This document shows, one piece after another, positions 14,224 through 57,070 of a DNA stretch of 64,000 bases. A program made the translations under genes and the position numbers. This stretch comes from Heptranchias perlo (lineage: Eukaryota): assembly GCF_035084215.1 (NCBI RefSeq), contig NC_090357.1, positions 19,096,001-19,160,000 of the forward strand, given 5' to 3'. Positions within the stretch are counted from its first letter, which is position 1. Each line of letters starts with the position of its first letter. The notes beneath the pieces were generated by a model. It saw only the letters and a list, made by a program, of their open reading frames with translations, had not been told where the DNA came from and made no database searches.

Positions 14224-14429
14224 CTAACAGTAAAATGGAATTAAAAGATTTGTACCATGCTAACTACATAGAAAAGAACCTGAATTTACTACATTTGCAG
14301 AAATATAATAACTGTAAATTAATTCATAAATATATACAAGTTCATAGAATCATAGAATCATAGAAGTTACAACATGGAAACAGGCCCTTCGGCCCAACAT
14401 GTCCATGTCGCCCAGTTTATACCACTAAG

Positions 14430-17378
14430 CTAGTCCCAATTGCCTGCACTTGGCCCATATCCCTCGATACCCATCTTCCCCATGTAACTGTCCAAATGCT
14501 TTTTAAAAGACAAAATTGTACCCGCCTCTACTACTGCCTCTGGCAGCTCGTTCCAGACACTCACCACCCTTTGAGTGAAAAAATTGCCCCTCTGGATCCT
14601 TTTGTATCTCTCCCCTCTCACCTTAAATCTGTGCCCCCTCGTTATAGACTCCCCTACCTTTGGGAAAAGATTTTGACTATCGACCTTATCTATGCCCCTC
14701 ATTATTTTATAGACTTCTATAAGATCACCCCTTAACCTCCTACTCTCCAGGGAATAAAGTCCCAGTCTGTCTAACCTCTCCCTATAAGTCAAACCATCAA
14801 GTCCCGGTAGCATCCTAGTAAATCTTTTCTGCACTCTTTCTAGTTTAATAATATCCTTTCTATAATAGGGTGACCAGAACTGTACACAGTACTCCAAGTG
14901 TGGCCTCACCAATGCCCTGTACATCTTCAACAAAACATCCCAACTCCTGCATTCAATGTTCTGACCAATGAAACCAAGCATGCTGAATGCCTTCTTCACC
15001 ACCCTATCCACCTGTGACTCCACTTTCAAGGAGCTATGAATCTGTACTCCTAGATCTCTTTGTTCTATAACTCTCCCCAACGCCCTACCATTAACGGAGT
15101 AGGTCCTGGCCCGATTCGATCTACCAAAATGCATCACCTCACATTTATCTAAATTAAACTCCATCTGCCATTCATCGGCCCACTGGCCCAATTTATCAAG
15201 ATCCCGTTGCAATCCTAGATAACCTTCTTCACTGTCCACAATGCCACCAATCTTGGTGTCATCTGCAAACTTACTAACCATGCCTCCTAAATTCTCATCC
15301 AAATCATTAATATAAATAACAAATAACAGCGGACCCAGCACCGATCCCTGAGGCACACCGCTGGACACAGGCATCCAGTTTGAAAAACAACCCTCGACAA
15401 CCACCCTCTGTCTTCTGTCGTCAAGCCAATTTTGTATCCAATTGGCTACCTCACCTTGGATCCCATGAGATTTAACCTTATGTAACAACCTACCATGCGG
15501 TACCTTGTCAAATGCTTTGCTGAAGTCCATGTAGACCACGTCTACTGCACAGCCCTCATCTATCTTCTTGGTTACCCCTTCCAAAAACTCAATCAAATTC
15601 GTGAGACATGATTTTCCTCTCACAAAACCATGCTGACTGTTCCTAATTAGTCCCTGCCTCTCCAAATGCCTGTAGATCCTGTCCCTCAGAATACCCTCTA
15701 ACAACTTACCCACTACAGATGTCAGGCTCACTGGTCTGTAGTTCCCAGGCTTTTCCCTGCCGCCCTTCTTAAACAAAGGCACAACATTTGCTACCCTCCA
15801 ATCTTCAGGCACCTCACCTGTAGCGGTGGATGATTCAAATATCTCTGCTAGGGGACCCGCAATTTCCTCCCTAACCTCCCATAACGTCCTGGGATACATT
15901 TCATCAGGTCCCGGAGATTTATCTACCTTGATGCGCGTTAAGACTTCCAGCACCTCCCTCTCTGTAATATGTACACTCCTCAAGACATCACTATTTATTT
16001 CCCCAAGTTCCCTAACATCCATGCCTTTCTCAACCGTAAATACCGATGTGAAATATTCATTCAGGATCTCACCCATCTCTTGTGGTTCCGCACTTAGATG
16101 ACCTTTTTGATCCTTAAGAGGCCCTACTCTCTCCCTAGTTACCCTTTTGCCCTTTATGTATTTGTAGAAGCTCTTTGGATTCACCTTTGCCTGATCTGCC
16201 AAAGCAATCTCATATCCCCTTTTTGCCCTCCTGATTTCTCTCTTAACTCTACTCCGGCAATCTCTATACTCTTCAAGGGATCCACTTGATCCCAGCTGCC
16301 TATGCATGTCATATGCCTCCTTCTTATTTTTGACTAGTGCCTCAATCTCCCGAGTCATCCAAGGTTCCCTACTTCTACCAGCCTTGCCCTTCACTTTATA
16401 AGGAATGTGCTTACCCTGAACCCTGGTTAACACACTTTTGAAAGCCTCCCACTTACCAGACGTCCCTTTGCCTGCCAACAGACTCTCCCAATCAACTTCT
16501 GAAAGTTCCTGTCTAATACCATCAAAATTGGCCTTTCCCCAATTTAGAATTTTAACTTTTGGGCCAGACCTATCCTTCTCCATAGCTATCTTAAAACTAA
16601 TGGAATTATGATCACTGGTCCCAAAGTGATCCCTCACTAACACTTCTGTCACCTGCCCTTCCTTATTTCCCAAGAGGAGGTCAAGTTTTGCCCCCTCTCT
16701 AGTCGGGCCATCCACATACTGAATGAGAAATTCCTCCTGAATACACTCAACAAATTTCTCTCCATCCAAGCCCCTAATGCTATGGCTGTCCCAGTCAATG
16801 TTGGGAAAGTTAAAGTCCCCTACTATTACCACCCTATTTTTCTTGCAGCTGTCTGTAATCTCCTTACATATTTGCTCCTCAATTTCCCGTTGACTATTTG
16901 GGGGTCTGTAGTACAATCCTATCAAAGTGATCTCTCCCTTCTTATTTTTCAGTTCTACCCATATGGACTCAGTGGGCGAACCCTCGGATATATCCCCTCT
17001 CACTACTGCCGTGATGTTCTCCCTAATCAAGAACGCAACTCCCCCTCCTCTCTTACCTCCTGCTCTATCTTTCCTATAGCATCTGTACCCTGGAACATTG
17101 AGCTGCCAGTCCTGCCCCTCCCTTAGCCATGTTTCAGTAATAGCTATAACATCCCAGTCCCATGTACTCATCCATGCCCTGAGTTCATCTGCCTTGCCCA
17201 TCAGACTTCTTGCATTGAAATAAATGCAGTTTAATCTAGACTTCCCTTGGTCTTTGCCCTGCTTTCTCAGACCATCTGTCCGGTCATGTTCTGTACACTC
17301 TCCCTTACTGCCTTTTGTTTCTGTCACCACTTTATTTCCCACTGACTTCCTGCATCGGTTCCCATCCCCCTGCCACAT
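14430..17378 (-). CDS. CR1 ORF2: AP endonuclease + reverse transcriptase (982 aa from the ATG overlapping the ORF1 stop)
   Basis: YFNARSL, ITETW, GDFN and SDH endonuclease motifs; QGSVLGP and FADDTK RT motifs; no stops. Confidence 0.93.
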   Translation of the reverse strand: MWQGDGNRCRKSVGNKVVTETKGSKGECTEHDRTDGLRKQGKDQGKSRLNCIYFNARSLMGKADELRAWMSTWDWDVIAITETWLREGQDWQLNVPGYRCYRKDRAGGKRGGGVAFLIRENITAVVRGDISEGSPTESIWVELKNKKGEITLIGLYYRPPNSQREIEEQICKEITDSCKKNRVVIVGDFNFPNIDWDSHSIRGLDGEKFVECIQEEFLIQYVDGPTREGAKLDLLLGNKEGQVTEVLVRDHFGTSDHNSISFKIAMEKDRSGPKVKILNWGKANFDGIRQELSEVDWESLLAGKGTSGKWEAFKSVLTRVQGKHIPYKVKGKAGRSREPWMTREIEALVKNKKEAYDMHRQLGSSGSLEEYRDCRSRVKREIRRAKRGYEIALADQAKVNPKSFYKYIKGKRVTRERVGPLKDQKGHLSAEPQEMGEILNEYFTSVFTVEKGMDVRELGEINSDVLRSVHITEREVLEVLTRIKVDKSPGPDEMYPRTLWEVREEIAGPLAEIFESSTATGEVPEDWRVANVVPLFKKGGREKPGNYRPVSLTSVVGKLLEGILRDRIYRHLERQGLIRNSQHGFVRGKSCLTNLIEFLEGVTKKIDEGCAVDVVYMDFSKAFDKVPHGRLLHKVKSHGIQGEVANWIQNWLDDRRQRVVVEGCFSNWMPVSSGVPQGSVLGPLLFVIYINDLDENLGGMVSKFADDTKIGGIVDSEEGYLGLQRDLDKLGQWADEWQMEFNLDKCEVMHFGRSNRARTYSVNGRALGRVIEQRDLGVQIHSSLKVESQVDRVVKKAFSMLGFIGQNIECRSWDVLLKMYRALVRPHLEYCVQFWSPYYRKDIIKLERVQKRFTRMLPGLDGLTYRERLDRLGLYSLESRRLRGDLIEVYKIMRGIDKVDSQNLFPKVGESITRGHRFKVRGERYKRIQRGNFFTQRVVSVWNELPEAVVEAGTILSFKKHLDSYMGKMGIEGYGPSAGNWD

Positions 17379-17780
17379 TAGTTTAAACCCTCCCCAACAG
17401 CACTGGCAAACACTCCCCCTAGGACATTGGTTCCAGTCCTGCCCAGATGCAGACCGTCCAATTTGTACTGGTCCCACCTCCCCCAGAACCGGTTCCAATG
17501 GCCCAGGAATTTGAATCCCTCCAGCTTGCACCATCTCTCAAGCCACGTATTCATCTTAGCTATCCTGTCATTCCTACTCTGACTAACCCGTGGCACTGGT
17601 AGCAATCCTGAGATTACTACCTTTGAGGTCCTACTCTTTAGTTTAACTCCTAACTCCCTAAATTCAGCTTGTAGGACCTCATCCTGTTTTTTACCTATGT
17701 CGTTGGTGCCTATATGCACCACGACAACTGGCTGTTCACCCTCCCCCTCCAGAATGTCCTGCAGCCGCTCCGAGACATCA
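17378..17780 (-). CDS. CR1 ORF1 C-terminal part (SGNH/GDSL esterase-like), 5'-truncated
   Basis: VHIGTND and DGLH motifs; ends GEGLN*. Confidence 0.88.
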
Positions 17781-18262
17781 ACCCTTTTGTTTTATATTGA
17801 GAAAAAGACTCCTAGAGCAAGCTAGAAAAGTGTAGATGAGGTTAATCAGGTATTAGTTGTCAAGTGATGCCCAGTTTTGGTTTTTAAAGCCTGATGATTG
17901 TAAGAGGAAAGGAAGACTGAGATGTTGTACAATTTGGAGGTCTTGGTAGAGACTGAGTTACAGTAGGGGTCAGTGCGATGGGTTTTCAGTTCAACATAGA
18001 AGATAGGCGTAAAAGAAAGTGCTTGCAGAATGTCTTATTTGCAGTTTAGAAGTAACAAGGAGGAAGAGTTCAGACCATAGTAGCATTGATAAAATTGAGA
18101 GACAATTTAATAAATATTATAATCATACTTGCATTTCTGTAACAGAATGTTTCAAAGGCACATCACACGATGAATGAGTATAGTGACCGTTTTTTGTAGG
18201 AAAAATAACGTGGAAAGCCTGGTAATATACTAAGAATTACTGTGCTGTTAAAATAATAAAGA

Positions 18263-21820: not shown

Positions 21821-23337
21821 AAACTGTACTTACATTGCAAAATCAGCCACTGAAAATGTTTAAATGAAATTACTGCATTTGAAGCTACTAAATCAGATGC
21901 TACCAGGAATCAAATAACTTTTTTTTCTTAAATGCTGCAGCTGTGAATCACCATAAATCAAACATAATTTGTAAACTGTAAGGCGACTGTAACGTTAACA
22001 ATTGCATATCAAACAATATGTTTGGTTTACATAGTAATAGAGTTTGCCATATTTGATTGCATTAATGGCAATGACAGCTTGCATTGAGTTAGTACCTTTA
22101 ATAATGTAACAAAAATCGCATGGCACTTTGTATAAAAAGGCCCAATGGGTGAAGGCACCGATTGGCATACTGTGCAATTATATTTCTATTTTCATGCCAA
22201 TGGGCAGTAGTTTTTTTTTGCCTGCATTAATGCCACTCAAAAGTTGGGTTGGCGATCAGACTCCTTATACATTAAAGCAAGAATTGTGAGACCACCTCCA
22301 ACAACATGCCTTTAACGTAATAAAAAAGTCCCAGGGCACTTCACAGCATGGACATCAAGCAGTAATAGGAATGTTGGGAGAGACGCAGTAAGCTGAAAAG
22401 ATTTAGCAAGGGAGTCCAGAGAGTGGACCATGGTGGCTGTAATGGCTATGCATCAATGGCATATGGTGGGTGGGGGGGGGCAGTGTTAGAGATATACAGG
22501 TGGCCAGGATTGATGGACCAAAGGACATAGGCTATGATATAAGACTGGAGGAGATTGGAAAGTTGGTATGACGTGAGAACATGAAGGAATTTGTAAACTG
22601 GGGCAAGGAGTTTTGAAATTCCAATCGATAGTCTTTCACTACTTGGAGTTTGTTTCAGGTGTAGGTCAACTCTAGACCCTCATGAATCACATTTCAAAAG
22701 TGCCTGGGCACAGGATAATAAACGTTACCAGAGATCTCCTTTCTCATTGCTCCTAGTAAGTCAGATGAAACTCTTTTTTAACAGCAGTAGCATTATATTT
22801 ATAAAACGTACAATGTGTTATTCTGCTGTTAAAATGGAGCTGTGTTTAAGGCAGCCTGTCCATTTAAAGGCATATAATGCAGTTCCTATAAACAACCACA
22901 GTCTGAGGTTAGAGTTTCATTGCTATTTGGTGAGGAAAGTTTTCAGATTGAAAAGTGCGGATAAATTTTAAGGTTCCCATTAAAAAAAAACAGCCTGATT
23001 AGTTGTTTTTCTTCCTCTTTTTCAAACTTTTCACGCTTTGAAGTACAACATCCGAAGTGCGACATTTCAAAGCTTTTGGATGGAAATATAGATGAGAAAG
23101 TGGACTCCTGTACTCATTTCCTCACAACAGTAACAACTAGCTGCCCTATGCCTCTCTAGAAGCTTGTGTACAAGCGCACATGCACAGAGCCGAATAAGCA
23201 CAGCCTGTCCTACAATTTAGGTCTGCTAGTGCACACTGCATTAAGCCTGAGACTGGTATCTGTAGTTATATTATGTATGTGTGTAAAATATAAATGACGT
23301 TGTTATCTAACTGCAACACTATATGCAAATACTTTAC

Positions 23338-23685
23338 CATAAATCTGTATCCATGTTCCTTGTCCCCTTCTCTCTAACGGCGGGGAGACTGTCGGTATCT
23401 GCGCCAAACAGGTGTAATTATATTCAGAGTGATCAAAAGAAGCACGTTCAATCTTCAGTGATGCAATACAGTGGCTAAAACCACCCGGAGTACCGTCGGG
23501 AATGCAGATCAGGGTATTCTCTTCATTTTGAACATAAGGGGCCAGTGGAGATGTCTTGTACCAAGCTGTATAGACCCATTCACTATTAGTTCCATTATAA
23601 ATAAATGTACAGTTTATTGTGACTGACTTTCCTCTCAGGACACTGACCAGAGGCGGCTGAGTCACCTTCCCAAGGTGTGGGACAC
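23338..23685 (-). CDS. IgSF receptor gene A, exon 2: VJ-type V-set domain
   Basis: AG at 23687-23686, GT at 23337-23336, 348 nt, phase 1-1. VTQPP..VTINC..AWY..YTC..GQGTWIQI. Confidence 0.92.
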
Positions 23686-24222
23686 CTGATGGAATAAAAT
23701 GCATTATCTGCCAATCAAACACATCTACCGAAAACATTGTAAATCGAATCACACGATGAAACACAGCAGATGACACAAATTTCACAGTATTTACACAGGA
23801 AGAAAACAAATCAAAGTATTGTAATAACAAAATGTGTTAGGCGAATTTGACCTGGTATTTATTTTAGCAGTATATAATTATTCTGTAACAAGACCGGTCA
23901 AACTGAACAATCTGGATTTCAGTGCCTGACCCTCTCAATTAACAGACAGTATAAACCCTCACTGCAAATGTTGAGCCAGAGCTCTACTTACTGGAGGATT
24001 TTTCTATCATTTTATTCTATTGAAACAGGAACCAGTCAAAGAAATGTCTGTATTAACATATTAACTAACTTTATTTTGGAACTGTTATTCTGAACACTGT
24101 TATTGATCAATTCTTCAGCTGTACTTCAGAATACTCCGCACTTGTTGTCAGTAACAGCTACTTGTTGCCAGTAAATTTAATTCAAGGATTGAATGTTAAA
24201 AGACTTTAATCAGATCACTTAC

Positions 24223-27094: not shown

Positions 27095-30000
27095 AGAACA
27101 TAGAAACATAGAAAATAGGTGCAAGAGTAGGCCATTCGGGCCTGCTCCGCCATTCAAAATGATCATGGCTGATTGTCTAACTCAGTACCCTGTTCCTGCT
27201 TTTTCCCCATATCCCTTGATCCCTTGAGCATGAAGAAATATATCAATCTCCTTCTTGAATATATTTAATGACTTGGCCTCCACTGCCTTCTGTGGTAGAG
27301 AATTCCATAGGTGCACCACCGTCTGAGTGAAGAAATTTCTCCTCATCTTGGTTCTAAATGGCATACCCCATATCCTGAGACTATGACCCCTGGTTCTGGA
27401 CTCCCCAGCCATCGGGAACATCCTCCCTGCATCTAGTCTGTCTAGTCCTGTTAGAATTTTATATGTTTCGATGAGATCGCCTCTCATTCTTCTAAACTCT
27501 AGTGAATATAGGCCTAGTCGACCCAATCTCTCCTCATGCGTCAGTCCTGCCATCCCAGGAATCAGTCTGGTAAACCTTCGTTGCACTCCCTCCATGGCAA
27601 GGACATCCTTCCTCAGATAAGGAGACCAAAATTGCACACAATACTCCAGATGTGGTCTCACCAAGGCCCCGTACAACTGCAGTAAGACATCCCTGCTCCT
27701 GTACTCAAATCCTGTTGCAATCAAGGCCAACATACCATTCACCTTCCTAACTGCTTGCTGCACCTGAATGCCTGCTTTCAGCGACTGGTGTACAAGGACA
27801 CCCAGTTCTCGTTGCACCTCCCCTTTTCCCAATCTATCACCATTCACATAATAATCTGCCTTTCTGTTTTTACAACCAAAGTGGATAACCTCACATTTAT
27901 CCTCGTTATACTGCATCTGCCATGTTCTTGCCCATTCACCCAACTTGTCTAAATCATATTGGAGCCTCTTTGCATCCTCCTCACAACTCACATTCCACCC
28001 CAGCTTTGTGTTGTCTCCAAACTTGGAAATGTTACATTTAGTTCCCTCATCCAAATCATTGATCTATATTTTGAATAGCTGGGGCCAAAGCACTGATCCC
28101 TGTGGTACCCACTAGTCATTGCCTGCCACCCGGAAAAAGACCCGTTTATTCCTACTCTCTGTTTCCTGTCTCTCAACCAATTCTCAATCCATGCCAGTAT
28201 ATTCCCCCCAATCCCATGTGCTTTAATTTTGCACACTAACCTCTTGTGTGGGACCTTATCAAAAGCCTTCTGAAAATCCAAATACACCACATCCACTGAT
28301 TCTCTCCTATCTATTCTACTAGTTACATCCTCAAAAAACTCCTGTAGATTTGTTAAGCATGATTTCCCTTTCATAAATCCATGCTGACTTTGTCCAATCC
28401 TGTTAATACCCTCCAAGTGTTCTGTTATCACATCTTTTATAATAGACTTTAGCATTTTCCCCACTACTGGTGTTAGGCTAACTGGTCTGTAATTTACTGT
28501 TTTTTCTTCCCCTCCTTTTTTAAATAGTGGGGTTACATTTGCCACCCTCCAATCTGTAGGAACTGTTCCAGAGTCTATAGAATTTTGGAAGATGATCACC
28601 AATGCATCCACTATTTCCAGGGCCACTTCCTTTAGTACTCTGGGATATAGATTATCAGGCCCTGGGAATTTGTCAACCTTTAGCCCCATTTATTTCCCTA
28701 GCACTATTTTTTTACTAATACTGGTTTCCTTCAGTTCCTCCCTCTCACTAGACCCTTGGTTCCCTAACATTTCTGGGAGGATACTTATGTCCTCCTTTGT
28801 GAAGACAGAACCAAAGTATGTGTTTAATTGTTCTGCCATTTCTTTGTTCCTCATTATAATTTCCCCCATTTCTGACTGTAAGGGACTTACATTTGTCTTC
28901 ACTAATCTTTTTCTCTTGACATATTTTTGAAGCTTTTACAGTCAGTTTTTATGTTCCCTGCTAGTTTACTCTCATACCCTATTTTTCACCTCTTAATTAA
29001 TCTCTTTGTCCTCCTTTGCTGAATTCTAAACTGCCCCCAATACTGAGGCTTGCCGCTTTTTCTGGCAATTTTATATGTCTCCTCTTTGGATCTAATACTA
29101 TCCCTAATTTCTTTTGTAAGCCACGATTGAGCCATCTCTCTGGTTTTATTTTTGCCCCAGACAGGAATGAATATTTGTTGTAATTCCTGCACACGTTCTT
29201 TAAATATTAGCCATTGCCTATCCACCGTCATCCCTTTTAGTAAAGTTCCCCAATCTATCATAACCTACTCGCACCTCAAAGTTTCGTAATTTCCTTTATT
29301 TAGATTCAGGACCCTAGTTTCGGATTCAAATACTTCACTCTTCATCTTAATGAGTAATTCCATCACGTTGTGGTCGCTCTTCCCTCAGGGACCCCGCACA
29401 GCAAGATCGTTAATTAACTCTTTCTCATTTCACAATACCCAGTCTAGGATTGCCTGTTCTCTAGTTTCTTCCTCAACGTATTGGTCTCGAAAATCATCAC
29501 GTACACACTCCAGGAATTCCTCCCCCACAGTATTATTGCTAATTTGGTTTGACCAATCTCTCTGTAGATTAAAGTCACCCATGATGCTAGTTGTACCCTT
29601 CTTGCATGCATCTCTAATTTCCTGTTTAATGCCCTCCCCTACATCTCCACTACTGTTTGGGGGCCTATAGACAACCCCACCAACGTTTTCTGCCCCTTGG
29701 TGTTTCTTAGCTCCACCCATACAGATTCCACATCATGATTTTCCGAGCCAATATCCTTCCTCACTATTGCATTGATTTCCTCCTTTACTAACAATGCTAT
29801 CCAACTTCCTTTCCCTTTTTGCCTGTCCTTCCTAAATATTGAATACTCCTGGATGTTCAGTTCCCATCCTTGGTCACCCTGCAGCCAATTCTCCGTAATT
29901 GCATTTACATCATAACCGTTAATATCTATCTGCGCTGTTAATTCATTTAGCTTATTGAGAATGCTCCGCGCATTAAGACACAATGCCTTTAGACTTGTCT

Positions 30001-31590
30001 TTTTAAGATTGCTAATCATGTTAGTTTTATTTTGCACTATGGCTCCATTTGTTTTTCACCCTTATTTTATCTGCCTTCCACTATTGCTTCTTCCCCTTCT
30101 GACTTTTGTTTCTATCCTTGTTTCCCCCTCTTCTGTCTCCCTGCTCAGGTTCCCATCCCCCTGCCATTCTAGTTTAAACCTTCCCCAACAGCACTAGCAA
30201 ACACCCCCATGAGGACATCGGTCCCGGTCCTGTTTGAGTGTAACCCATCACGCTTGTACAGGTCCCACCTTCCCCAGAACCGGTCTCAATGTCCCAGGAA
30301 TCTAAATCCCTCCCTCCTACACCATCCCTGCAGCCACGCATTCATCTGGTCTATTATCCTGTTCCTGTACTCACTAGCACATGGCACTGGTCGTAATCCT
30401 GAGATCACTACCTTAGAGGTCCTGCTTTTTAATTTATCTCCCAACTCCTTAAATTCACCTTGCAGGACTTCATCCCTTTTTTTTTTACCTATGTCGTTGG
30501 TACCAATATGGACCATGACTACTGGCTGTTCACCCTCCCACTCCAGAATGCCCTGCAGCTGCTCCGTGACATCCTTGATCCTAGCACCAGGGGGGGGCAA
30601 CATACCATCCTGGAGTCACATTTGCGGCTGCAGAAATGCCTATTTGTTCCCCTTACAATTGAATCCCCTATCACTATAGCCTTGCCACTCTTATTCTTCC
30701 CCTCCTGTGCAGCAGAGCCACCCGTGGTGCCATGAGCTTAGCTCTTGCTGCTTTCCCCTGATAAGTCATCTCCCCCAACAGTATCCAAAGCGGTATATGT
30801 GTTTGAGAGGGAAATGGCCCCTGGGGACCCCTGAACTACCGGCCTAGTCCTTTTACTCTTCCTGGCGGTCACCCATTTCTTTTCTGCCTTCGTAATCTTT
30901 ACCTGCGGTGTGACCACCTCACTGAACGTGCAATCCACGATAATCTCAGCATCGCGGATGCTCCACAGTGAATCCACCCGCAGCTCCAGCTCCGAAATAC
31001 GATTCGTCAGTAGCTGCAGATGGACACACTTCCTGTACACTTCGTCGCCAGGGACACCTGTAGTGTCTATGGCTTCCCACATAGCACAGGAGGAGCATAT
31101 CACGGGTGCGAGCTCTGCTGCCATGACTTGCCTTAGATTAAGCTCATTAGTTACTCCCTTTAAGGAGTTTCCTCCTTTAAATTACTCTTAATTTAGAGAA
31201 TGTTAACTACACTAGGGACCTTGATTCACTAAAAAACTCTACTTGCTATAAGACCTGCAGACCTTCCCTTTCTTTTTACTTAAGTTGCTGCAGTTTAGAA
31301 TAGTAGAAATACTCACCTGAACCTACTTACCAATCAGCTGCCTCCCCTGCGTCGCGTCACTTTTTCACTGGTGACTTCACCTCTGGAACTCCGCCGCTGA
31401 TCCCAGTTTATCCGCCTCCGATCTCGCTTAGCTCAGCTCTCCCGCTCTCGGGCCCTCCTTTATCCGCCTCCGATCTCGCTTAGCTCAGCTCTCCCGCTCT
31501 CGGGCCCTCCTTTATCCGCCTCCGATCTCGCTTAGCTCAGCTCTCCCGCTCTCGGGCCCTCCTTTATCCACCTCCGATCTCGCTTAGCTC
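27095..31590 (-). mobile_element. Full-length, inactivated CR1 LINE (ORF1 zinc finger + esterase, ORF2 EN-RT)
   Basis: ORF1 start MAAELAPVICSSCAMWE at 31124, esterase motifs, EN and RT fragments, 3' tail, 5' tandem repeats. Confidence 0.95.
31407..31590 (-). repeat. 52-bp tandem repeat (3.5 copies) at the CR1 5' end
   Basis: Unit starts at 31407, 31459, 31511 and 31563. Confidence 0.95.
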
Positions 31591-33939: not shown

Positions 33940-36900
33940 CTTGAGCACAGAGGTTAGGAAAGTCAGAGAGTGAACCTCTAACAGAGTGAACCTCTAACAG
34001 AGTGAACCGCTAACAGAGTGAGGACATTCAACCCGGAATTTGGTGAGTGTGGGAATTAGGTGCAGAGGGGGAAGGAGGTGCTAAGCGATTTAAACCAAAG
34101 AGATTTAAACCAAACCACTGTACTAAGACTGAGTGGAGCATAAAGGGATCCGCACGAGGAATCAAAATATGGCAAAGAGGAGCTCCGAGGGTAAGTCAGT
34201 AAGTATTTAGTTCATTGGTTAGTGTTTTTTAGCAGTTGGTTAGTGTTTTTTAGTGGTTAGTGTTTTAGTGTCAGACAAAGAGTAAAGTGCCTTAAAGGTA
34301 AACAAACAGTTTAAATAACTGTTAGCTAACATGGCAGGACAGTTGGAGCCTGTCGCATGCACATTCTGTGCCATGTGGGATCTCTGTGCGTGCTGGAAAA
34401 CCACATATGCAGGAAGTGCCACCAACTGCTCGAGCTTGAGCTCAGAGATTCTGAGCTTGAAGGGCGGCTGATGTTACTACAGTGCAGCTGGTGTTTCAGG
34501 AGGTGGTCAACACGCAGCTATCGAGAGTTCAGGCGGGGAGGGAGCGGGTGACCACCAGACAGACTAGGAGGAACAGGCAGGCAGTGCAGGAGTCCCCTGG
34601 GAGTGTGGTACTCACAAACCGGTATTCAGTGTTGAATATTAGTGAGGGTCTTGACACCTTGGGGGAGTGCAGTCAGGAGCAAATCCACGACGCTGTGGGA
34701 GACTCGGCTGCACAGGGGGAAAAAGAAATGCAGTTGTTGTAGGGGATTCGATAGTCAGGGGGATAGACAGGCATTTCGGCAACCACCGAACTGAGTCCTG
34801 CATGGTGTGTTGCCTCCCTGGTGGCAGGGTAATGGACATCACTGAGAGGGTGCAGAACATTTTGAGGGGGGAAGAGGAATAGCCAGAAGTCGTGGTCCAC
34901 ATGGGAACCAATGACATGGGAAGGAAAAGGGTCGAGTTCCTGCAGTCAGAGTTTCAGGAGCTAGGGAGGATGTTAAAAAGCAGGACCTCAAAGGTAGTAA
35001 TCTCTGGATTACTCCCACTGCCACGTGCTATTGAGTAGGAATAGTAGGATAAGACAGGTTAATGTGTGGCTGGAGCAATGGTACAGATGGGAGGGCTTCA
35101 GATTCCTGGGGCATTGGGACCAGTTCTGGGGCAGGAGGGATCTGTTCAAGATGGACGGGTTGCACTTCAACAGAGTTGGGACCAATGTCCTCACAGGGAG
35201 GTTAACTAGTGCTGTGGGGGAGGGTTTAAACTAATTTGGAAGAGGGAAGGGCACCAGGATGAAACATTAGAGAGGAAAAACACGGTGCACTGAGGACTGG
35301 GAGCGACAAGTAGCACTAGAGTAAAGAATAGTTCAGAAATAGCAGGGAGCAGACAGGGGGCAAATGTGAGGCAATCTAGGATGAGTTTAGAGTGCATGTG
35401 TGTAAACGCACGTAGCATGGTAAGTAAGGTTGGTGAGCTGAAAGCTCAAGTCGCCACACGGGACTATGATATAGTGGCAATAATAGAGACCTGGCTCAAA
35501 GAAGGGGAGGATTGGGTACTCCTGGCTACAAGGTATTCAGGAAAGTTAGGGAAAGAAAGAAAGGAGGGAGGGTGGCAGTATTGATCAAAGAAACTATTAT
35601 AGCACCGGAAAGGGATGAGGTAGTTGAGAGGTCAAAGACAAGATCTATTTGGTTAGAATTAAGGAACAATAGAGGAGCTATTACGCTACTGGGTGTATAC
35701 TATAGGCCACCAAATAGTGGGAAGGAGGTAGAGGAGCAAATTTGCAGGCATATTACAGAAAGATGCAAGAACTATAGAGCAGTGATAATGGGGGACTTCA
35801 ATTATCTCAATATAGACTGGGACAGTATCAGTGTAATGGGCAAAGAGGGGGAGGAATCCCTGAAATGTGATTAAGAGAACTTTCTGGAACAGTGTATTTC
35901 CAGCCCAACCAGGAAGGAAACAGTGCTGAATCTAGTTCTTGGGAATGACATGGGGCAGGTGGAGCATGTGATCATATCATTAGGTTTAGAATAGTTATGG
36001 AAAAGGACAAGGAACAATCAAATGTGAAAATGCTTAACTGAAGGAGGGCAAATTTCAGTGAGTTAAAAAGGGATCTTTCCCAAGTGGATTGGAATCAAAA
36101 ATTCTTAGGCAAAACAGTAGTTGAACAATGGGAGGCCTTCAAGAAGGAGTTGGTTCGGGTACAGAGTAGACACATCCCTACAAGGGGGAAAGGAAGGGCA
36201 TCCAAAGCTAGAGCTCCCTGGATGACTAAAGATATAGAGATTAAAATGAAACCATAAAAGGGGGCTTATGATGAATATAAGGTTCATAATATAGTAGAGA
36301 ACCAGGCTGAATACAGAAAATAAAGAGGAGATCTAAAAAGGGGAATAAGAGGGGCAAAGTGAGAGTATGAGATTAAATTAGTGGCTAACATAAAAGTGAA
36401 CCCAAAAATCTTTTATAAACATATAAATAGTAAAAGGGTAGTTAAAGGAAGGGTGGGACCGATTAGGGACAAAAAAGGAGATCTTCTTGTGGAGGCGGAG
36501 GGCAAGGCTGAGGTGCTAAATGAATACTTTGCATCCATCTTCACTAGAGAAGAGGACGCTGCCATTGTAGCAGTAAAGGAGGAGGTAGTAGCGATATCGG
36601 ATAGGATTAAAAATAGATAAAGAGGAGGTACTTAAAAGATTAGCAGTACTCAAAGTAGAAAAGTCACCCGGTCCAGATGGGCTTCATTCTAGGTTACTAG
36701 GGAAGTAAGGGTGGAAATTGCGGAGGCTCTGGCCACAATCATCCAATCCTCCTTAGATATGGGGATGGTGCCGGAACACTGGAGGATTGTAAATGTTACA
36801 TCCCTGTTCAAAAAAGGGGAGGGGGATAAACCCAGCAGTGACAGGCCAGTCAACCTAACGTCGGTGGTGGGGAGTCTTTTAGAGACATTAATCCTGGACA

Positions 36901-43529: not shown

Positions 43530-45776
43530 TGTAAAAGGAGAGTCCGAGAGTGGGAGGAGAGTCCAAGAGGTGAGCGCAGTGTAAAAGGAGAGTCCAAGAG
43601 GTGAGCGCAGTGTGGGAGGAGAGTCCAAGAGGTGAGCGCAGTGTGGGAGGAGAGTCCGAGAGGTGAGCGCAGTGTGGGAGGAGAGTCCGAGAGGTGAGTG
43701 CAGTGTGGGAGGAGAGTCCGAGAGGTGAGTGCAGTATAAAAGGAGAGTCCGAGAGGTGAGCGCAGTGTGGGAGGAGAGTCCGAGAGGTGAGTGCAGTGTG
43801 GGAGGAGAGTCCGAGAGGTGAGTGCAGTATAAAAGGAGAGTCCGAGAGGTGAGTGCAGTGTGGGAGGAGAGTCCGAGAGGTGAGCGCAGTGTGGGAGGAG
43901 AGTCCGAGAGGTGAGTGCAGTGTAAAAGGAGAGTCCAAGAGGTGAGCGCAGTGTGGGAGGAGAGTCCAAGAGGTGAGCGCAGTGTGGGAGGAGAGTCCGA
44001 GAGGTGAGCGCAGTGTGGGAGGAGAGTCCGAGAGGTGAGTGCAGTGTGGGAGGAGAGTCCGAGAGGTGAGTGCAGTATAAAAGGAGAGTCCGAGAGGTGA
44101 GTGCAGTGTAAAAGGAGAGTCTGAGAGGTGAGTGCAGTGTAAAAGGAGAGTCCGAGAGGTGAGTGCAGTGTGGGAGGAGAGTCCGAGAGGTGAGTGCAGT
44201 GTGGGAGGAGAGTCCGAGAGGTAAGTGCAGTGTGGGAGGAGAGTCCGAGAGGTGAGTGCAGTGTGGGAGGAGAGTCCGAGAGGTGAGTGCAGTGTAAAAG
44301 GAGAGTCCGAGAGGTGAGTGCAGTGTGGGAGGAGAGTCCGAGAGGTGAGCGCAGTGTGGGAGGAGAGTCCGAGAGGTGAGTGCAGTGTGGGAGGAGAGTC
44401 CGAGAGGTAAGTGCAGTGTGGGAGGAGAGTCCGAGAGGTGAGTGCAGTGTGGGAGGAGAGTCCGAGAGGTGAGTGCAGTGTGGGAGGAGAGTCCGAGAGG
44501 TAAGTGCAGTGTGGGAGGAGAGTCCGAGAGGTGAGTGCAGTGTGGGAGGAGAGTCCGAGAGGTAAGTGCAGTGTGGGAGGAGAGTCCGAGAGGTGAGCGC
44601 AGTGTAAAAGGAGAGTCCGAGAGGTGAGCGCAGTGTGGGAGGAGAGTCCGAGAGGTGAGTGCAGTGTGGGAGGAGAGTCCGAGAGGTGAGCGCAGTGTAA
44701 AAGGAGAGTCCGAGAGGTGAGCGCAGTGTGGGAGGAGAGTCCGAGAGGTGAGTGCAGTGTGGGAGGAGAGTCCGAGAGGTAAGTGCAGTGTGGGAGGAGA
44801 GTCCGAGAGGTGAGTGCAGTGTGGGAGGAGAGTCCGAGAGGTAAGTGCAGTGTGGGAGGAGAGTCCGAGAGGTGAGTGCAGTGTGGGAGGAGAGTCCGAG
44901 AGGTGAGTGCAGTGTGGGAGGAGAGTCCGAGAGGTGAGCGCAGTGTGGGAGGAGAGTCCGAGAGGTGAGCGCAGTGTAAAAGGAGAGTCCGAGAGGTGAG
45001 CGCAGTGTGGGAGGAGAGTCCGAGAGGTGAGTGCAGTGTGGGAGGAGAGTCCGAGAGGTGAGTGCAGTGTGGGAGGAGAGTCCGAGAGGTGAGCGCAGTG
45101 TAAAAGGAGAGTCAGAGAGGTGAGTGCAGTGTAAAAGGAGAGTCCGAGAGGTGAGTGCAGTGTAAAAGGAGAGTCCGAGAGGTGAGTGCAGTGTAAAAGG
45201 AGAGTCCGAGAGGTGAGTGCAGTGTGGGAGGAGAGTCCAAGAGTGGGAGGAGAGTCCGAGAGGTGAGTGCAGTGTGGGAGGAGAGTCCAAGAGTGGGAGG
45301 AGAGTCCGAGAGGTGAGCGCAGTGTAAAAGGAGAGTCCGAGAGCGAGAAGAGAGTCCGAGAGGTGAGTGCAGTGTCAAAGGAGAGTCCGAGAGCCGGAGG
45401 AGAGTCCGAGAGCGGGAGGAGAGTCCGAGAGGTGAGCGCAGTGTAAAAGGAGAGTCCGAGAGGTGAGTGCAGTGTGGGAGGAGAGTCCAAGAGTGGGAGG
45501 AGAGTCCGAGAGGTGAGTGCAGTGTGGGAGGAGAGTCCAAGAGTGGGAGGAGAGTCCGAGAGGTGAGCGCAGTGTAAAAGGAGAGTCCGAGAGCGAGAAG
45601 AGAGTCCGAGAGGTGAGTGCAGTGTCAAAGGAGAGTCCGAGAGCCGGAGGAGAGTCCGAGAGCGGGAGGAGAGTCCGAGAGGTGAGCGCAGTATAAAAGG
45701 AGAGTCCGAGAGGTGAGCGCAGTGTAAAAGGAGAGTCTCGAGAGCAGGAAGAGAGTCCGAGAGGTGAATGCAATGT
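43530..45776 (+). repeat. 31-bp tandem array (about 70 units), GAGAGTCCGAGAGGTGAGYGCAGTGT(GGGAG/AAAAG)
   Basis: Direct periodicity, 31-aa periodic antisense ORFs, and a 250-bp higher-order duplication near 45240-45720. Confidence 0.97.
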
Positions 45777-48700
45777 AAATCTAAGGCAAGTTTGTGGCAG
45801 CAGAGCTCGCACCAGTGATATGCTCCTCCTGTACCATGTGGGAAGTCATGGACACTATAGGTGTCCCTGGCGACCATGTATGCAGGAAGTATGTCCAGCT
45901 GCAGCTACTGACTAACCGTATTTCAGAGCTGGAGCTGTGGGTGGATTCACTGTGGAGCTTCCGCGATGCTGAGATTATCGTGGATAACACGTTCAGTGAG
46001 GTGGTCACACCGCAGGTAAAGATCACGCAGGCAGAAAGGAAATGGGCGACCGCCAGGCAGAGTAAAAGGACTAGGCAGGTAGAGCAGGAGTCCCCTGGGG
46101 CCATCTCCCTCTCAAACAGATATACCGCTTTGGATACTGTTGGGGGAGACGGCTTATCAGGGGAAAGCAGCAAGAGCCAAGTTCGTGGCACCACGGGTGG
46201 TTCTGCTGCACAGGAGGGGAGGAATAAGAGTGGCAGGGCTATAGTGATAGGGGATTCAATTGTAAGGGGAACAGATAGGCGTTTCTGTGGCCGCAAACGT
46301 GACTCCAGGATGGTATGTTGCCTCCCTGGTGCTAGGGTCAAGGATGTCACGGAGCAGCTGCAGGGCATTCTGGAGGGGGAGGGTGAACAGGCAGTAGTCG
46401 TGGTCCATATCGTTACCAACAACATAGGTAAAAAAGGGATGAGGTCTTGCAAGGTAAATTTAAGGAGCGAGGAGATAACTTAAAAAGCAGGATCTCAGTG
46501 CCATCTGCTAGTGAGTATAGGAACAGGAGAATAGACCAGATGAATGCGTGGTTGCAGGGATGGTGTAGGAGGGAGGGGTTTAGATTCCTGGGGCATTGGG
46601 ACCAGTTCTGGGGAAGGTGGGACCTGCACAAGCGTGACAGGTTATACCCGAGCAGGACTGGGACCGATGTCCTCGCAAGGGTGTTTGCAAGTGCTGTTGG
46701 GGAAGGTTCAAACTAGAATGGCAGGGGGATGGGAACCTGAGCAGGAAGACAGAGCAGGGGGAACAAGGATAGAAACAAAAGACAGAAAGGGAAGAAGCAA
46801 TAGTGGAAGGCAGAGAAAATAAGGGCGAAAAACAAATGGAGCCACAGTGCAAAATAAAACTAAGATGACTAGCAATCTTAAAAAGACAAGTCTAAAGGCA
46901 TTGTGCATTAATGCGCGGAGCGTTTGGAATAAGTTAGATGAATTAACAGCGCAGATAGATATTAATGGATATGATATAGTTGCGATTATGGAGACATGGC
47001 TGCAGGGTGACCAAGGATGGGAACTGAACATTCAGGGGTATTCAATATTTAGGAAGAACAGGCAAAAAGGGAGAGGAGGTGGGTTAGCATTGTTAGTAAA
47101 GGAGGAGATCAATGCAATAGTGAGGAAGGATATTGGCTCGGAAAATCACGATGTGGAATCTGTATGGGTGGAGCGAAGAAACACCAAGAGGTAGAAAACG
47201 TTGGTGGGGTTGTCTATAGGCCCCCAAACAGTAGTGGAGATGTAGGGGAGGGCATTAAACAGGAAATTAGAGATGCATGCAAGAAGGGTACAACTATAAT
47301 CATGGGTGACTTTAATCTACATATAGATTGGTCAAACCAAATTAGCAATAATACTGTGGGGGAGGAATTCCTCGAGCGTGATGGTTTTCTAGACCAATAC
47401 GTTGAGGAACCAACTAGAGAACAGGTGATCCTAGACTGGGTATTGTGCAATGAGAAAGGATTAATTAACAATCTTGCTGTGCGGGGTCCCTGAGGGAAGA
47501 GCGGCCATAACATGATAGAATTCCTCATTAAGATGGAGAGTGAAGTAGTTGAATCCGAAACTAAGGTCCTGAATCTAAATAAAGGTAATTATGAAAGTAT
47601 GAGGTGCGAGTTGGCTATGATAGATTGGGGAACTTTACTAAAAGGGATGACGGTGGATAGGCAATGGCTAATATTTAAAGAACGTGTGCAGGAATTACAA
47701 CAATTATTCATTCTTGTCTGGGGCAAAAATAAAACAGGAAAGGTGGCTCAACCGTGGATTACAAAAGAAATTAGGGATAGTATTAGATCCAAAGAGGAGA
47801 CATATAAAATTGCCAGAAAAAGAGGCAAGCCTAAGGATTGGGAACAGTTCAGAATTCAGCAAAGGAGGACAAAGAGATTGATGAAGAGAGGACAAATAGG
47901 GTATGAGAGTAAACTAGCAGGGAACATAAAAACTGACTGTAAAAGCTTCTATTACTATGTCAAGAGAAAAAGATTAGTGAAGGCAAATGTAGGTCCCTTA
48001 CAGTCAGAAATGGGGGAAATTATAACAGGGAACAAAGAAATGGCAGAGCAATTAAATACATACTTTGGTTCTGTCTTCACAAGGGCGGACACACATAACC
48101 TCCCAGAAATGTTAGGGAACCAAGGGTCTAGTGAGAGGGAGGAACTGAAGGAAACCAGTATTAGTAAAAGAAAATAGTGCTAGGGAAATAAATGGGGCTA
48201 AAGGCTGACAAATCCCCAGGGCCTGATAATCTATATCCCAGAGTACTAAAGGAAGTGGTCCTGGAAATAGTGGATGCATTGGTGATCATCTTCCAAAATT
48301 CTATAGACTCTGGAACAGTTCCTACAGATTGGAGGGTGGCAAATGTAACCCCACTATTTAAAAAAGGAGGGAGAGAAAAAACAGGAAATTACAGACCAGT
48401 TAGCCTAACATCAGTAGTGGGGAAAATGCTAGAGTCTATTATAAAAGATGTGATAACAGAACACTTGGAGGGCATTAACGGGATTGGACAAAGTCAGCAT
48501 GGGTTTATGAAAGGGAAATCATGCTTAACAAATTTACTGGAGTTTTTTGAGGGTGTAACTAGTAGAATAGATAGGGGAGAACCAGTGGATGTGGTGTATT
48601 TGGATTTTCAGAAGGCTTTTGATAAGGTTCCACACAAGAGGTTAGTATGCAAAATTAAAGCACATGGGATTGGGGGGAATATACTGGCATGGATTGAGAA

Positions 48701-49745
48701 TTGGTTGAGAGACAGGAAACAGAGAGTAGGAATAAACGGGTCTTTTTCCGGGTGGCAGGCAGTGACTAGTGGGTACCACAGGGATCAGTGCTTGGGCCCC
48801 AGCTATTCAAAATATAGATCAATGATTTGGATGAGGGAACTAAATGTAACATTTCCAAGTTTGCAGACGACACAAAGCTGGGGTGGAACGTGAGCTATGA
48901 GGAGCATGCAAAGAGGCTCCAATATGATTTAGACAAGTTGGGTGAGTGGGCAAGAACATGGCAGATGCAGTATAATGTGGATAAATGTGAGGTTATCCAC
49001 TTTGGTTGTAAAAACAGAAAGACAGATTATCATCTGAATGGTGATAGATTGGAAAAAAGGGAGTTGCAATGAGACCTGGGTGTCCTTGTACACCAGTCGC
49101 TGAAAGCGAGCATTCAGGTGCAGCAAGCAGTTAGGAAGGCGAATGGTATGTTGGACCTCATTGCAAGAGGATTTGAGTACAGGAGCAGGGATGTCTTACT
49201 GCAGTTATACGGGGCCTTGGTGAGACCACATCTGGAGTATTGTGTGCAGTTTTGGTCTCCTTATCTGAGGAAGGATGTCCTTGCCATGGAGGAAATGCAA
49301 TGAAGGTTTACCAGACTGATTCCTGGGATGGCAGGACTGACGTATGAGGAGAGATTAGGTCGACTAGGCCTATATTCACTAGAGTTGTAACAGGACTAGA
49401 CAGACTAGATGCAGAGAGGATGTTCCCAATGGCTGGGGAGTCCAGAACCAGGGGTCACAGTCTCAGGATACAGGGTATGCCGTTTAGAACCGAGATGAGG
49501 AGAAATTTCTTCACTCAGAGGGTGGTGAACCTGTGGAATTCTCTACCACTGAAGGCATAGGAGTACAAGTCATTAGATGTATTCAAGAAGGAAATAGATA
49601 TATGTATTAATGCTAAGGGGATCACGGGATATGGGGGAAAAAGCGGGAACAGGGTACTGAGTTAGATGATCAGCCACGATCATTGTGAATGGCGGAGCAG
49701 GCCCAAAGGGCCGAATGGCCTACTCTTGCTCTTATTTTCTATGTT
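45777..49745 (+). mobile_element. Near full-length inactivated CR1 LINE, inverted twin of 27095-31590
   Basis: ORF1 45794-46716 and ORF2 fragments 46847-49660, highly similar to the minus-strand copy. Confidence 0.95.
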
Positions 49746-51934: not shown

Positions 51935-53655
51935 AGAACGTAAGAAATAGGAGCAGGAGTAGGCCATACAGCCCCTCAAGCCTGCTTCGCCATTCAATAA
52001 GATCATGGCTGATCTTCGACCTCAACTCTACTTTCCCACCTGATCCCCATATCCCTCGATTCCCTTCGAGTCCAAAAATCTATCGATCTCAGTCTTGAAT
52101 ATACTCAATGGCTGAGCATCCACAGCCCTGAGAGATTTCCAAAGATTCACAATCCGATGAGTGAAGAAATTTCTCCTCATCTCAGTCCTAAATGGCCGAT
52201 CCCTTATCCTGAGACTATGCCCCTAAGTTCTAGTCTCTCCAGCCAGGGGAAGCAGCCTCTCAGCATCTACCCTGTCAAGCCCGCACTCAATGAGATCACT
52301 TCTCATTCTTCTCACTCTAGAGAGTACAGGCCCATTCTACTCAACCGTTCCTCATAGGACAACCCTCTCATCCCAGGAATCAATCTAGTGAACCTTCGTT
52401 GCACCTGCTCTAAGGCAAGTATATCCTCTTTTGGAGACCAAAACTGTAAACAGTATTCCAGGTATGGTCTCACCAAAGCCCTGTACAATTGTAGCAAGAC
52501 TTCCTTACTCTTTATTGCAAGGGGGTTGCAGTTCAAGGCCAACATACCATTTGCCTTCCTAATTGTTTGCTGTATCTGCATGTTAATTTTCTGTGGTTTG
52601 TGTACAAGGACACCCAAATCCCTCAGAACACCAACATTTAATGGTTTCTCACCATTCAAAAAATATTCTGTTTTTCTATTCTTCCTACCAAAGTGAATAA
52701 CCTCACATTTCCCCACATTATATTCCACGTTTACTTTCGCTACTCGCTTTCTTTTTACATACTTATAGAAGCTCTTACAACCTGTTTTTATATTTCTTGC
52801 TAGTTTACTCTCATTTTCTATTTTCTCCCTCTATATAAATTTTTTGGTTATCCTTTGTTGGTTTCTAAAACTCTCCCAATCCTCAGGCTTACTACTCTTC
52901 TTGGCAACATTATAAGCCTCTTCTTTTAATCTAATACTATCCTTAACATCTTTAGTTAGCCTCGGATGGATCACTTTTCCTGTGGAGTTTTTATTCCTTA
53001 ATGGAATGTGTATTCATTGAGAATTATGAAATATTTAATTAAATGTTCACCATTGCTCATCTACCGTCATATCTTTTAATCTAATTTCGCAACCAACCTT
53101 AGCCAACTCGCCCCTCGTACCTTTGTAATTGGCTTTGTTTAAGTTTAAGTTTAAGACTCAAGTTTCGGATTAGTTAGGTCACTCTCGAACTTAATATGAA
53201 ATTCTGTCATATTATGATCACTCTTCCCCAGAGAGTTCCTTACTATGAGATTACTAATTAACCCTGTCTCATTACACAAGACAAAATCTAAAATAGCCTG
53301 ATCCCTTGTTGGTTCCACGACGTATTATTCTAGGTAACTGTCTCGAATACATTTCATGAACTCGTTCTCCAAACTACTTTTGCCAATTTGATTTGCCCAA
53401 AGTATATATGAACTTTTTACTATTTTACCCTGATTTGACCTTATTCACTGATGCACTATTACCGTTAAACTCTCTGTCCCTTCCTGACACACTCTACTTA
53501 TCTTTACCCAAATCGCTACACTGCTCTGCGGCCTTGACTTTTCCCTTTAGATTTATAAATTTACCCTTACCTGAACCCTCCCCCCTTTTTAGTTTAAAGC
53601 CCTATTTTCCACCTTAGTTATTCGATTACCAGGACGCTGGTCCCAGCCCTGTTCT
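51935..53655 (-). mobile_element. CR1 LINE with several internal deletions
   Basis: ORF1 end (about 53590-53655), EN remnant, RT C-terminus and 3' tail. Confidence 0.88.
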
Positions 53656-55469: not shown

Positions 55470-55792
55470 GCAGGCGGGATCTGTTCAAGATCGACAGGTT
55501 GCATCTCAACAGAGCTGGGACCAATATCCTCGTGGGAAGGTTAACTAGTGCTGTGGGGGAGGGTTTAAACTAATTTGGCAGTCAGATGGGCACCAGGGTG
55601 AAATATTAGAGAGGACTAGGAGGGACAAGTAGCACTGGAGTAAAGAATAGTTCAGAAATCGGAGAGATTAGACAGGGGGCAGATGTGAGGCAGTCTAAGA
55701 TGAGCATATGTGCGAAAACGCTCGTAACGTGGCGTTATATAAATATTTGTTGTTTGCTATAACTTTTAATAATATCTCATGGTAAATAAGGC
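55470..55792 (+). repeat. Duplicated CR1 ORF1/ORF2 junction fragment
   Basis: Similar to 56260-56550 joined to 59180-59221. Confidence 0.8.
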
Positions 55793-56803
55793 GGCATATG
55801 CAGGAGGCAGACCTCAGTTCATCCAGGATACAGTGAGGTTGTTACCGTGATGTTTTATATCACTAATTATATTTAGCTGCAGCCTGGTACTGTACAAACA
55901 GTCAACACCACTTCTGACATTTGTTTAAGAGCAGCATGCAATAATTCCACTACATCCCTTCAAGAACATCACTGAGAGGGTGCAGAATATTGAGGGGGGA
56001 AGGGGAACACCCAGAAGTCAAGGTCCATGTGGGAGTCAATGACATAGGAAGGAAAAGGTCCTGCAGTCAGAGTTTCAGGAGCTCGGGAGTAAGTTAAAAA
56101 GCAGGACCTCAAAGATAGTAACCTCTGGATTACTCCCAGTGCCATGTGTTAGTGAGTATAGGAATAGTTGGATAAGACAGGTTAATGCATGGCTGGAGCA
56201 ATGGTGCAGGAGGAACGGCTTCAGATTTCTGGAGCATTGGGACCAGTTCTGGGACAGGAGGGATCTGTTCAAGATGGACGGGTTGCACCTCAACAGAGCT
56301 GGGACCAATATCTGCCCGGGGAGGTTAACTAGTGCTGTGGAGGAGGGTTTAAACTAATTTGGCAGAGGGGTGGGCACCAGGATGAAACATTAGAGAGGAG
56401 AAACAAGGTGCACAGAGGACCGCGAGAGGCAAGTAGCCCTAGAGTAAAGAATAGTTCAAAAATAGGAGGGATCAGGGGGCAGATGCGAGGCAGTCTAAGA
56501 TGAGATTGGAGTGCATATGCGTAAACACGTAGCGTAGTGTTATATAATTATATTGGGGGTTAAATTGGATAAGGCCTGATATAGAGCGCGGGGGTCGCGG
56601 TGCGAGGTTAACCCCTGCCCAGCGTTACTGATGCAGGCACCACGAGAGATTCGTGCTGCATCCTTATTTCCATGATTCCCATGTGCAGCCAGCGCTACCC
56701 GCGCCGTTGAGTGGCTGAACGCACCAACAAGAGGCCCGATATGGGGCGGAGCCAGCACTAGGTAAAGGCAACCTGCACCTCTTAAAGGGGAGGTGCACTG
56801 TCA

Positions 56804-57070
56804 ATGGAAGCAGTGCAGGATGACAGGCAGAATGGCTGGAGCAGCAAGAGAGCTTGCACCGAGGTTCTCCGACAGCACACTGGAGGCCTTAGTGGAGGGA
56901 GTGCAGGAACGGAGAGCCATCCTGTACCTGTAGGGCGGCAGGAGACCCTCCAGACACCAGCTGCAGAGGCAGTGGGAGGAAGTGGCCGTGGAGGTGAATG
57001 GCAGGAATATAGCACCACGCGTTAATACAGTGCTGGAAAAAGTTAAATGATTTGATGTGAGTGGTCAAGG
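56804..57070 (+). pseudogene. Harbinger Myb/SANT-like DNA-binding protein remnant
   Basis: Shifted frames give PRFSDSTLEALVEGVQERRAILY..QWEEVAVEVNGR..QCWKKLNDL, followed by a GTGAGT donor. Confidence 0.75.

Follow-up and report, generated by a model that had tools for sequence, protein, structure and literature searches.

A slippery heptamer conserved at the ORF1 stop codon of esterase-type CR1 retrotransposons as a candidate site of programmed -1 frameshifting

How do CR1 elements, a clade of long interspersed nuclear elements (LINEs), translate their second open reading frame (ORF2), which encodes the endonuclease and reverse transcriptase? The question is raised by a 64,000-nucleotide (nt) stretch of the Heptranchias perlo genome (NC_090357.1, positions 19,096,001 to 19,160,000; hereafter the window) that is rich in CR1-type LINE copies. 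CR1 jumping genes are common in sharks, reptiles and birds, and in many vertebrate genomes they are dominant. CR1 accounts for about 11.8% of chicken chromosomes (PMC11835228). Translation of LINE ORF2 is treated as an open question, with reinitiation as the working model (PMC3894237, PMC2881922). An initial annotation of the window pointed to a U_UUA_AAC motif at the ORF1/ORF2 junction and proposed that these elements may make a Gag-Pol-like ORF1-ORF2 fusion protein. That proposal is supported here by conservation of the motif across jawed vertebrates, by a restriction of the preceding residue to those with a codon ending in T (NNT), and by switching to Q-G-N and x-K-N peptides in relatives. 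From the sequences compared, we consider it likely that programmed -1 frameshifting produces an ORF1-ORF2 fusion in esterase-type CR1 LINEs and is their main route to ORF2.

The window contains seven CR1 ORF1/ORF2 junctions, all of which the initial annotation had placed correctly, and at six of them, representing four families, ORF1 ends in T_TTA_AAC followed directly by its stop codon (TAA or TAG). The heptamer follows the pattern X_XXY_YYZ and lies in the zero-frame phase of canonical programmed -1 frameshifting. On the minus strand at 17381-17387 it comprises the last two ORF1 codons (Leu-Asn) and the preceding third base, with the stop TAA immediately 3' of it at 17378-17380. It is found at 30172-30178 (minus strand) in a copy of a second family, at 35225-35231, 55564-55570 and 56348-56354 (all plus strand) in a third family, the second of these being a short fragment and the last a copy whose endonuclease start is interrupted by an insertion, and at 53592-53598 (minus strand) in a fourth, divergent family where the preceding codon is GCT. 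The seventh junction, at 46707-46713 (plus strand) in a sister of the 30178 copy, is mutated, as had been recorded, and reads T TCA AAC (TTCAAAC) and then TAG. Six junctions were recognised by tblastn as the C-terminus of an SGNH-esterase ORF1, and the one at 53598, where only about 45 nt of ORF1 are left, by alignment and by its likeness, judged by eye, to the Squalus CR1-17a and 6c consensus rows. The exact 9-mer TTTAAAC+TA, present at all six sites, occurs six times in the window against 0.80 expected, and six or more were seen in 0 of 100 shuffles, a comparison that ignores kinship among the copies. With related copies, and with TTTAAAC by itself present 30 times in the window, it is the position of the motif and not its count that carries weight.

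The element with the 17387 junction extends over 14342-17782 on the minus strand and is an ordinary member of the CR1 clade. Its ORF1 is a 5'-truncated remnant of 134 codons (17381-17782) encoding an SGNH/GDSL esterase (PF13472, E = 2e-10); a profile search also matched the ZfL2-1 esterase 4C1B (E = 9e-37), and among named ORF1 proteins the nearest come from cartilaginous fishes, those of Pristiophorus japonicus being 87% identical. The ORF2 frame (14430-17387) spans 985 codons and encodes an APE endonuclease (residues 57-260) and a reverse transcriptase (residues 543-777; PF03372, PF14529 and PF00078 across ORF2). The element lacks poly(A) and ends in a 3' tail, read from the printed sequence, of three 8-nt repeats of the ATTCTATG type (14342-14365), while its 5' truncation lies near 17782. 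The same esterase ORF1, APE-reverse transcriptase ORF2, 8-nt 3' repeats and 5' truncation are features of the canonical vertebrate CR1 with a type IVB esterase ORF1 (PMC4120745, PMC13343379), and by eye the 17387 junction is much like that of the published Scyliorhinus CR1-1a row. This copy had been described as intact with ORF2 in the -1 frame; the frame is indeed -1 and open for all 985 codons, but the copy is not intact, ORF1 being cut to its last ~134 codons.

Between the heptamer and the endonuclease of this copy lies a linker of about 56 codons (17220-17387, minus strand) with no stop in the -1 frame and with 3 and 5 stops in the other two frames. At the junction the -1 frame encodes F-K-L-x-W-(Q/K)-x-x-G in six copies, x being Met in one of these and either Glu or Ile in the rest, and F-K-L-K-R-G-E-G in the seventh. 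The distance from the heptamer to the NAR motif of the endonuclease, measurable in five of the seven copies, is 171, 204, 180 and 153 nt in four of them, each in -1 phase; in the fifth, which is sister to the 204-nt copy, it is 203 nt, and the phase is thus kept in four of five; the 153-nt linker contains four stops, and phase there is weak evidence. The 204-nt linker is that of the 30178 copy, whose sister at 46707 has a private 1-nt linker deletion, and the 180-nt linker is that of the 35225 copy, with one stop that is absent from the 56348 copy. Upstream of the heptamer, the -1 frame opens only 5, 5, 5, 5 and 1 codons earlier in five copies (1 codon in the 53598 copy) and 23 and at least 50 codons earlier in the other two, and in six of seven copies this upstream stretch has no ATG, CTG, GTG, TTG or ACG. 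An ATG overlapping the stop in the ORF2 frame (TAATG; ATG at 17376-17378, minus strand) is present at one of the seven junctions, that of the 17387 copy, and is not conserved in the manner of SART1. The earlier statement that this copy alone has an in-frame ATG holds at the junction but not further on, as ATGs occur 15 codons before the NAR motif in the 30178/46707 family, 8 and 3 codons before it in the 35225 copy and 3 codons before it in the 55564 copy.

Database proteins extend this picture. We retrieved 42 ORF2-type proteins, among which eight from shark-like CR1s extend beyond the endonuclease motif by 37 codons or more on its upstream side; about 10 close matches start inside the endonuclease and are uninformative on the linker. 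All eight long linkers are open, Met occurs within 15 codons of the endonuclease motif in 0/8, and the junction peptide is visible in five. The -1 frame is thus open in the 17387 copy and in the database linkers, and the stops in decayed window copies are either private or derived from a dead source. One protein (P0186) was set aside as a gene-model splice in which the junction is skipped.

The dead source concerns the 30178 and 46707 copies. Linker stops combined with a conserved downstream ATG had been named at the outset as a pattern that would speak against frameshifting, and these two copies appear to show it, as both have a TAA at codon 39 of the linker and an ATG further on. Their sequences are identical at 94% of positions (2,839/3,027), and more ORF2 lesions are common to them, namely 1-nt deletions at codons 159 and 677 and a TGA at codon 255. 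None of the four other copies aligned at codon 677 has the deletion there. We infer that both copies stem from a single source whose ORF2 was already dead, so the shared linker TAA is uninformative and was dismissed as one of its lesions. In P0216, a database relative of this family, the linker is open beginning at the junction, and Met is absent near the endonuclease. As a separate observation, the two CR1 copies concerned (27105-31139, minus strand, and 45778-49745, plus strand) are 91% identical over 4 kb, with homology confined to the element and at least four common ORF2-inactivating lesions; they could have arisen by copying of a dead master in trans or by inverted duplication. Near the 5' side of the 30178 copy a 52-bp unit is present in 3.5 repeats of 99% identity (31407-31590), and a 31-bp minisatellite of ~70 copies (43550-45744) adjoins the 5' end of the 46707 copy.

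Within the last 30 ORF1 codons of the window copies many other third codon positions are invariant too. The window alone therefore does not single out the heptamer, and it is the comparison across taxa that carries the claim. For this we assembled 180 ORF1-type proteins (31, plus 149 more from the best 150 of 7,274 matches); the catalytic block of 125 lies 18-45 residues before the C-terminus, and these yield 112 distinct tails, the other 55 being excluded. Sixty-nine of the 112 tails end in a tripeptide that an X_XXY_YYZ heptamer can encode (59 x-L-N, 9 Q-G-N and 1 S-K-N), against 911/28,649 (3.2%) in the background elsewhere and 1-17 of 112 at offsets 1-15 from the end. These endings fit U_UUA_AAC, G_GGA_AAC and A_AAA_AAC, three of the four heptamers named as most prone to shifting (PMC5009743). 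The residue before a terminal LN has 12 identities, and the amino acids that have no NNT codon (E, Q, K, M and W) are found there in 1/60 tails versus 26/60 at position -4 and 21/60 at position -5. All nine GN ends are Q-G-N, and x-K-N has an NNA-codable x in 8/8 cases, seven of which lie 10-12 residues before the end. The tails are 22-39 residues long, and the terminal LN tracks the stop codon and not the helix. In our view the switching among the x-L-N, Q-G-N and x-K-N classes, as read from the peptides, is the strongest argument for frameshifting. Some ORF1s of the Q-G-N clade (P0081, P0099, P0118 and P0128) end near F-F or F-L and not all fit the strict heptamer rule; these ends perhaps represent a fourth, U-rich shift site. 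Two database entries labelled Pseudomonas aeruginosa and Carnobacterium maltaromaticum (P0005 and P0181) are CR1 proteins of shark-like type on contigs of 3-4 kb and are probably contamination by host DNA.

A tree of the ORF1 esterases, built by a quick method with support from the Shimodaira-Hasegawa-like approximate likelihood ratio test only and with the tails left out, groups 55 rows into one clade (support 97) that includes the named proteins from shark, ray, chimaera, swallow, snake, monitor lizard and turtle. Within this clade 48 rows end in x-L-N, and the seven exceptions are mostly one substitution off or apparently frameshifted. Its sister clade of eight rows (support 100), which appears to be L2, has the terminal motif in 0/8.

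At the DNA level, we searched the first 400 nt of each CR1-group consensus in Supplementary Table 2 of PMC13343379, taking the species from the row prefixes. The string tttaaacta occurs in 23 rows, of which, by eye, 17 are ORF1-end junctions and 6 are unrelated places. The junction rows come from alligator (2), saltwater crocodile (3), bullfrog, coelacanth, bowfin, a row labelled AldAff_Crack-2, Callorhinchus, Hypanus, Pristis, Scyliorhinus (2) and Squalus (3). Since such a search selects for the motif itself, rows were separately anchored on the codons of the esterase catalytic block, which gave 14 matches, 9 of them at the block and 8 with the ORF1 end visible. The heptamer and a stop follow in 8/8, all eight belonging to the 17. 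TAATG is present in 3/17 junction rows, and the consensus rows visibly carry single-base deletions. In two of the rows, SquAca_CR1-18 and SquAca_CR1-3, the 9-mer TTTAAACTA is also found in the 5' region, upstream of ORF1. A scan of genome contigs gave two unrelated bacterial SGNH loci, and a plasmid search gave no match.

In the mechanism that we propose, ribosomes translating ORF1 would meet U_UUA_AAC with the stop codon next, and most would terminate and release an ORF1 protein (ORF1p) ending in Leu-Asn. A minority would slip back by one base, tRNA-Leu moving from UUA to UUU and tRNA-Asn from AAC to AAA, and would then read CUA. These ribosomes would cross a linker of 45-70 codons into the endonuclease and reverse transcriptase, yielding an ORF1p-ORF2p fusion at a fixed low ratio, as for Gag-Pol. 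The slippage and the fusion protein are predictions from the arrangement of the junction, as is any stimulation by the adjacent stop codon or by a G-rich block, and in lineages with TAATG reinitiation may operate alongside frameshifting. In the 17387 copy the G-rich block occupies 17357-17375 (minus strand), its core GGG-GAT-GGG (17369-17361) beginning 11 nt after the heptamer, and it is a candidate stimulator and/or the coding sequence of a conserved W-Q-G-D-G peptide. GGG-GA(T/G)-GGG begins exactly 11 nt after the heptamer in 6/17 rows, judged by eye (chimaera, sawfish, catshark, two alligator rows and crocodile), and in 3/7 window copies, and other consensus rows have G-runs that are out of register; searching the supplement by the downstream G-rich motif returned 3 rows, all among those already found.

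Several observations weigh against this reading. Canonical sites have a stem-loop or pseudoknot 5-9 nt downstream, and none was found here by methods that do not model pseudoknots explicitly: single-copy folds of the first 40 nt have minimum free energies of -1.8 to -6.7 kcal/mol with no z below -2, the consensus fold is empty, Rfam has no match, and the best long-range pairing of the G-block (-23.1 kcal/mol) was bettered by 4/30 shuffles. In 3/7 copies a two-tier quadruplex scores level with or better than the weak hairpin. No naturally fused ORF1-ORF2 frame occurs among the 31 ORF1 and 5 ORF2 search matches. In each of the three window families that could be scored, an in-frame ATG lies either at the stop or 3-15 codons ahead of the endonuclease motif. 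The five database ORF2s with a visible junction peptide have Met at the junction; copies of this kind are favoured by gene callers, and an M in first position may stand for GTG or TTG. As to conservation, the ORF1 tails and consensus rows counted above are related and not phylogenetically independent, the evidence from birds and turtles consists of proteins and not of junction DNA, and the Q-G-N and x-K-N classes were read as peptides with their codons inferred. The control with internal x-L-N is weak (P = 0.069), and the conserved H-L-N in the catalytic block probably dominates it. The terminal Leu falls within the last predicted helix (296-314), so that its conservation may be partly structural.

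The start codons just described lead to the most familiar alternative, in which termination and reinitiation would give a separate ORF2p from TAATG as in SART1, from an ATG before the endonuclease, or from a non-AUG codon as in L1, with TTTAAACTA as part of the signal. For SART1 and L1, reviews give reinitiation as the mechanism, TAATG is found in the only window copy with an open ORF2 and in 3/17 consensus rows, and the other two scorable families have in-frame ATGs near the endonuclease. UGGGA is also present 54-55 nt upstream of the stop in 5/7 copies, inside the 40-90 nt range of a termination upstream ribosome-binding site (PMC3542737); it is missing at that distance from the very copy that has TAATG, however, and sits in conserved Gly-Thr codons, and none of the five copies that have it carries an ORF2-frame ATG at the stop in intact register. 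No single start is conserved, as TAATG is missing in 14/17 rows and 6/7 copies and Met is absent near the endonuclease in 8/8 database linkers. Reinitiation would also leave the NNT restriction, the three slippery classes and the -1-phase linker unexplained, and we consider it unlikely.

Protein constraint together with shared ancestry could instead have preserved a C-terminal Leu-Asn, for helix packing or as a recognition signal, and the W-Q-G-D-G of ORF2, leaving the heptamer as a by-product. The position of L314 in the terminal helix, the 76/112 tails that end in Asn and the broad conservation of third positions in the window would suit this explanation. The zebrafish L2 esterase structure 4C1B (171 residues), by contrast, matches the profile only to position 306/311, the L2-like clade lacks the terminal motif altogether, and LN lies at a variable distance from the domain. 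Before LN, Asp, Asn, His, Tyr, Cys and Phe are allowed but Glu, Gln, Lys, Met and Trp are not (21 vs 1), a pattern that codons fit better than chemistry. TTA and AAC are invariant in the 8/8 rows found independently of the motif, and conservation at the nucleotide level, in counts uncorrected for phylogeny, exceeds what the protein needs. An ORF2 peptide without an upstream start codon would moreover still need a way in, and this explanation appears distinctly improbable. A signal unrelated to translation, such as a splice element, a transcriptional slippage site or an RNA-binding site for ribonucleoprotein assembly, would account for the nucleotide-level conservation of the G-rich block (GGG codons) and for the missing structure of a classical frameshift site. 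Yet the stop varies between TAA and TAG, the downstream sequence is purine-rich, unlike an acceptor site, and such a signal gives no reason for a lock to the ORF1 frame or for alternation among X_XXY_YYZ classes, which makes it scarcely credible.

Frameshifting as proposed here has close parallels in the coronavirus IBV (infectious bronchitis virus), which uses U_UUA_AAC, and in retroviral gag-pol (PMC3542737, PMC5009743). CR1 has the same heptamer in the same phase to the upstream ORF, with the polymerase ORF in the -1 frame, and its relatives appear to use G_GGA_AAC and A_AAA_AAC. It differs from these sites in that the host is a non-LTR (long terminal repeat) retrotransposon, the zero-frame stop comes right after the heptamer, and no stem-loop or pseudoknot is predicted 5-9 nt on, a G-rich block being found instead after an 11-nt spacer. 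In PRRSV (porcine reproductive and respiratory syndrome virus) frameshifting depends on a short 3' motif located ~10-11 nt downstream and is not known to require an RNA structure. It is stimulated in trans by nsp1beta with PCBP (PMC5009743); the downstream motif of CR1 is instead G-rich. With SART1, where UAAUG couples stop and start, and with L1, which reinitiates unconventionally (reviewed in PMC3894237 and PMC2881922), CR1 shares a bicistronic LINE RNA, low ORF2 output and, in one window copy, TAATG; unlike them it conserves the slippery heptamer and not TAATG, and its predicted product is a fusion. We tentatively extend the proposal to a stemless -1 frameshift common to jawed-vertebrate CR1s and heptamer-swapped distant relatives, in which the pause would come from the stop and the G-rich element 11 nt on, acting as a two-tier quadruplex or as a protein site (possibly for ORF1p, giving autoregulation), and the fusion would tether endonuclease and reverse transcriptase to a lipid-binding esterase assembly. 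This fuller version is doubtful as a whole.

The passages searched in PMC4120745 and PMC13343379 make no mention of frameshifting or ORF overlap in CR1, and those in PMC5009743 contain no mention of CR1. We found no report of CR1 frameshifting in literature titles and abstract openings, a scope that excludes the founding turtle, chicken and esterase CR1 papers, which may mention overlapping ORFs and propose it, and priority is uncertain; a retrovirus-like mode of expression in CR1 has probably gone unrecognised. If the proposal is true, a major clade of LINEs follows the Gag-Pol strategy of retroviruses, and the real reverse transcriptase protein is a fusion of ~1,300 residues. Annotations of ORF2 that assume a downstream ATG would then be wrong, and engineered CR1 assays would have to preserve the junction. 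The apparent absence of a stem suggests an unusual stimulator, and in 2016 natural quadruplex-stimulated frameshifting was 'not currently known' (PMC5009743).

Other features of the window were also observed. The insertion that interrupts the 56348 copy where its endonuclease begins (~56535-59208) is degraded and DNA transposon-like. Its minus-strand fragments resemble what we take to be a Harbinger/HARBI1-type transposase, and the plus-strand ORF tested in it had no match in Pfam. An immunoglobulin V-set-like exon on the minus strand (23303-23836; PF07686, E = 7e-4, below the curated cut-off) is probably part of a host immune-receptor gene. Finally, 61128-61609 and 61765-62242 form an inverted duplication of 482 bp, 98% identical, within a decayed CR1.

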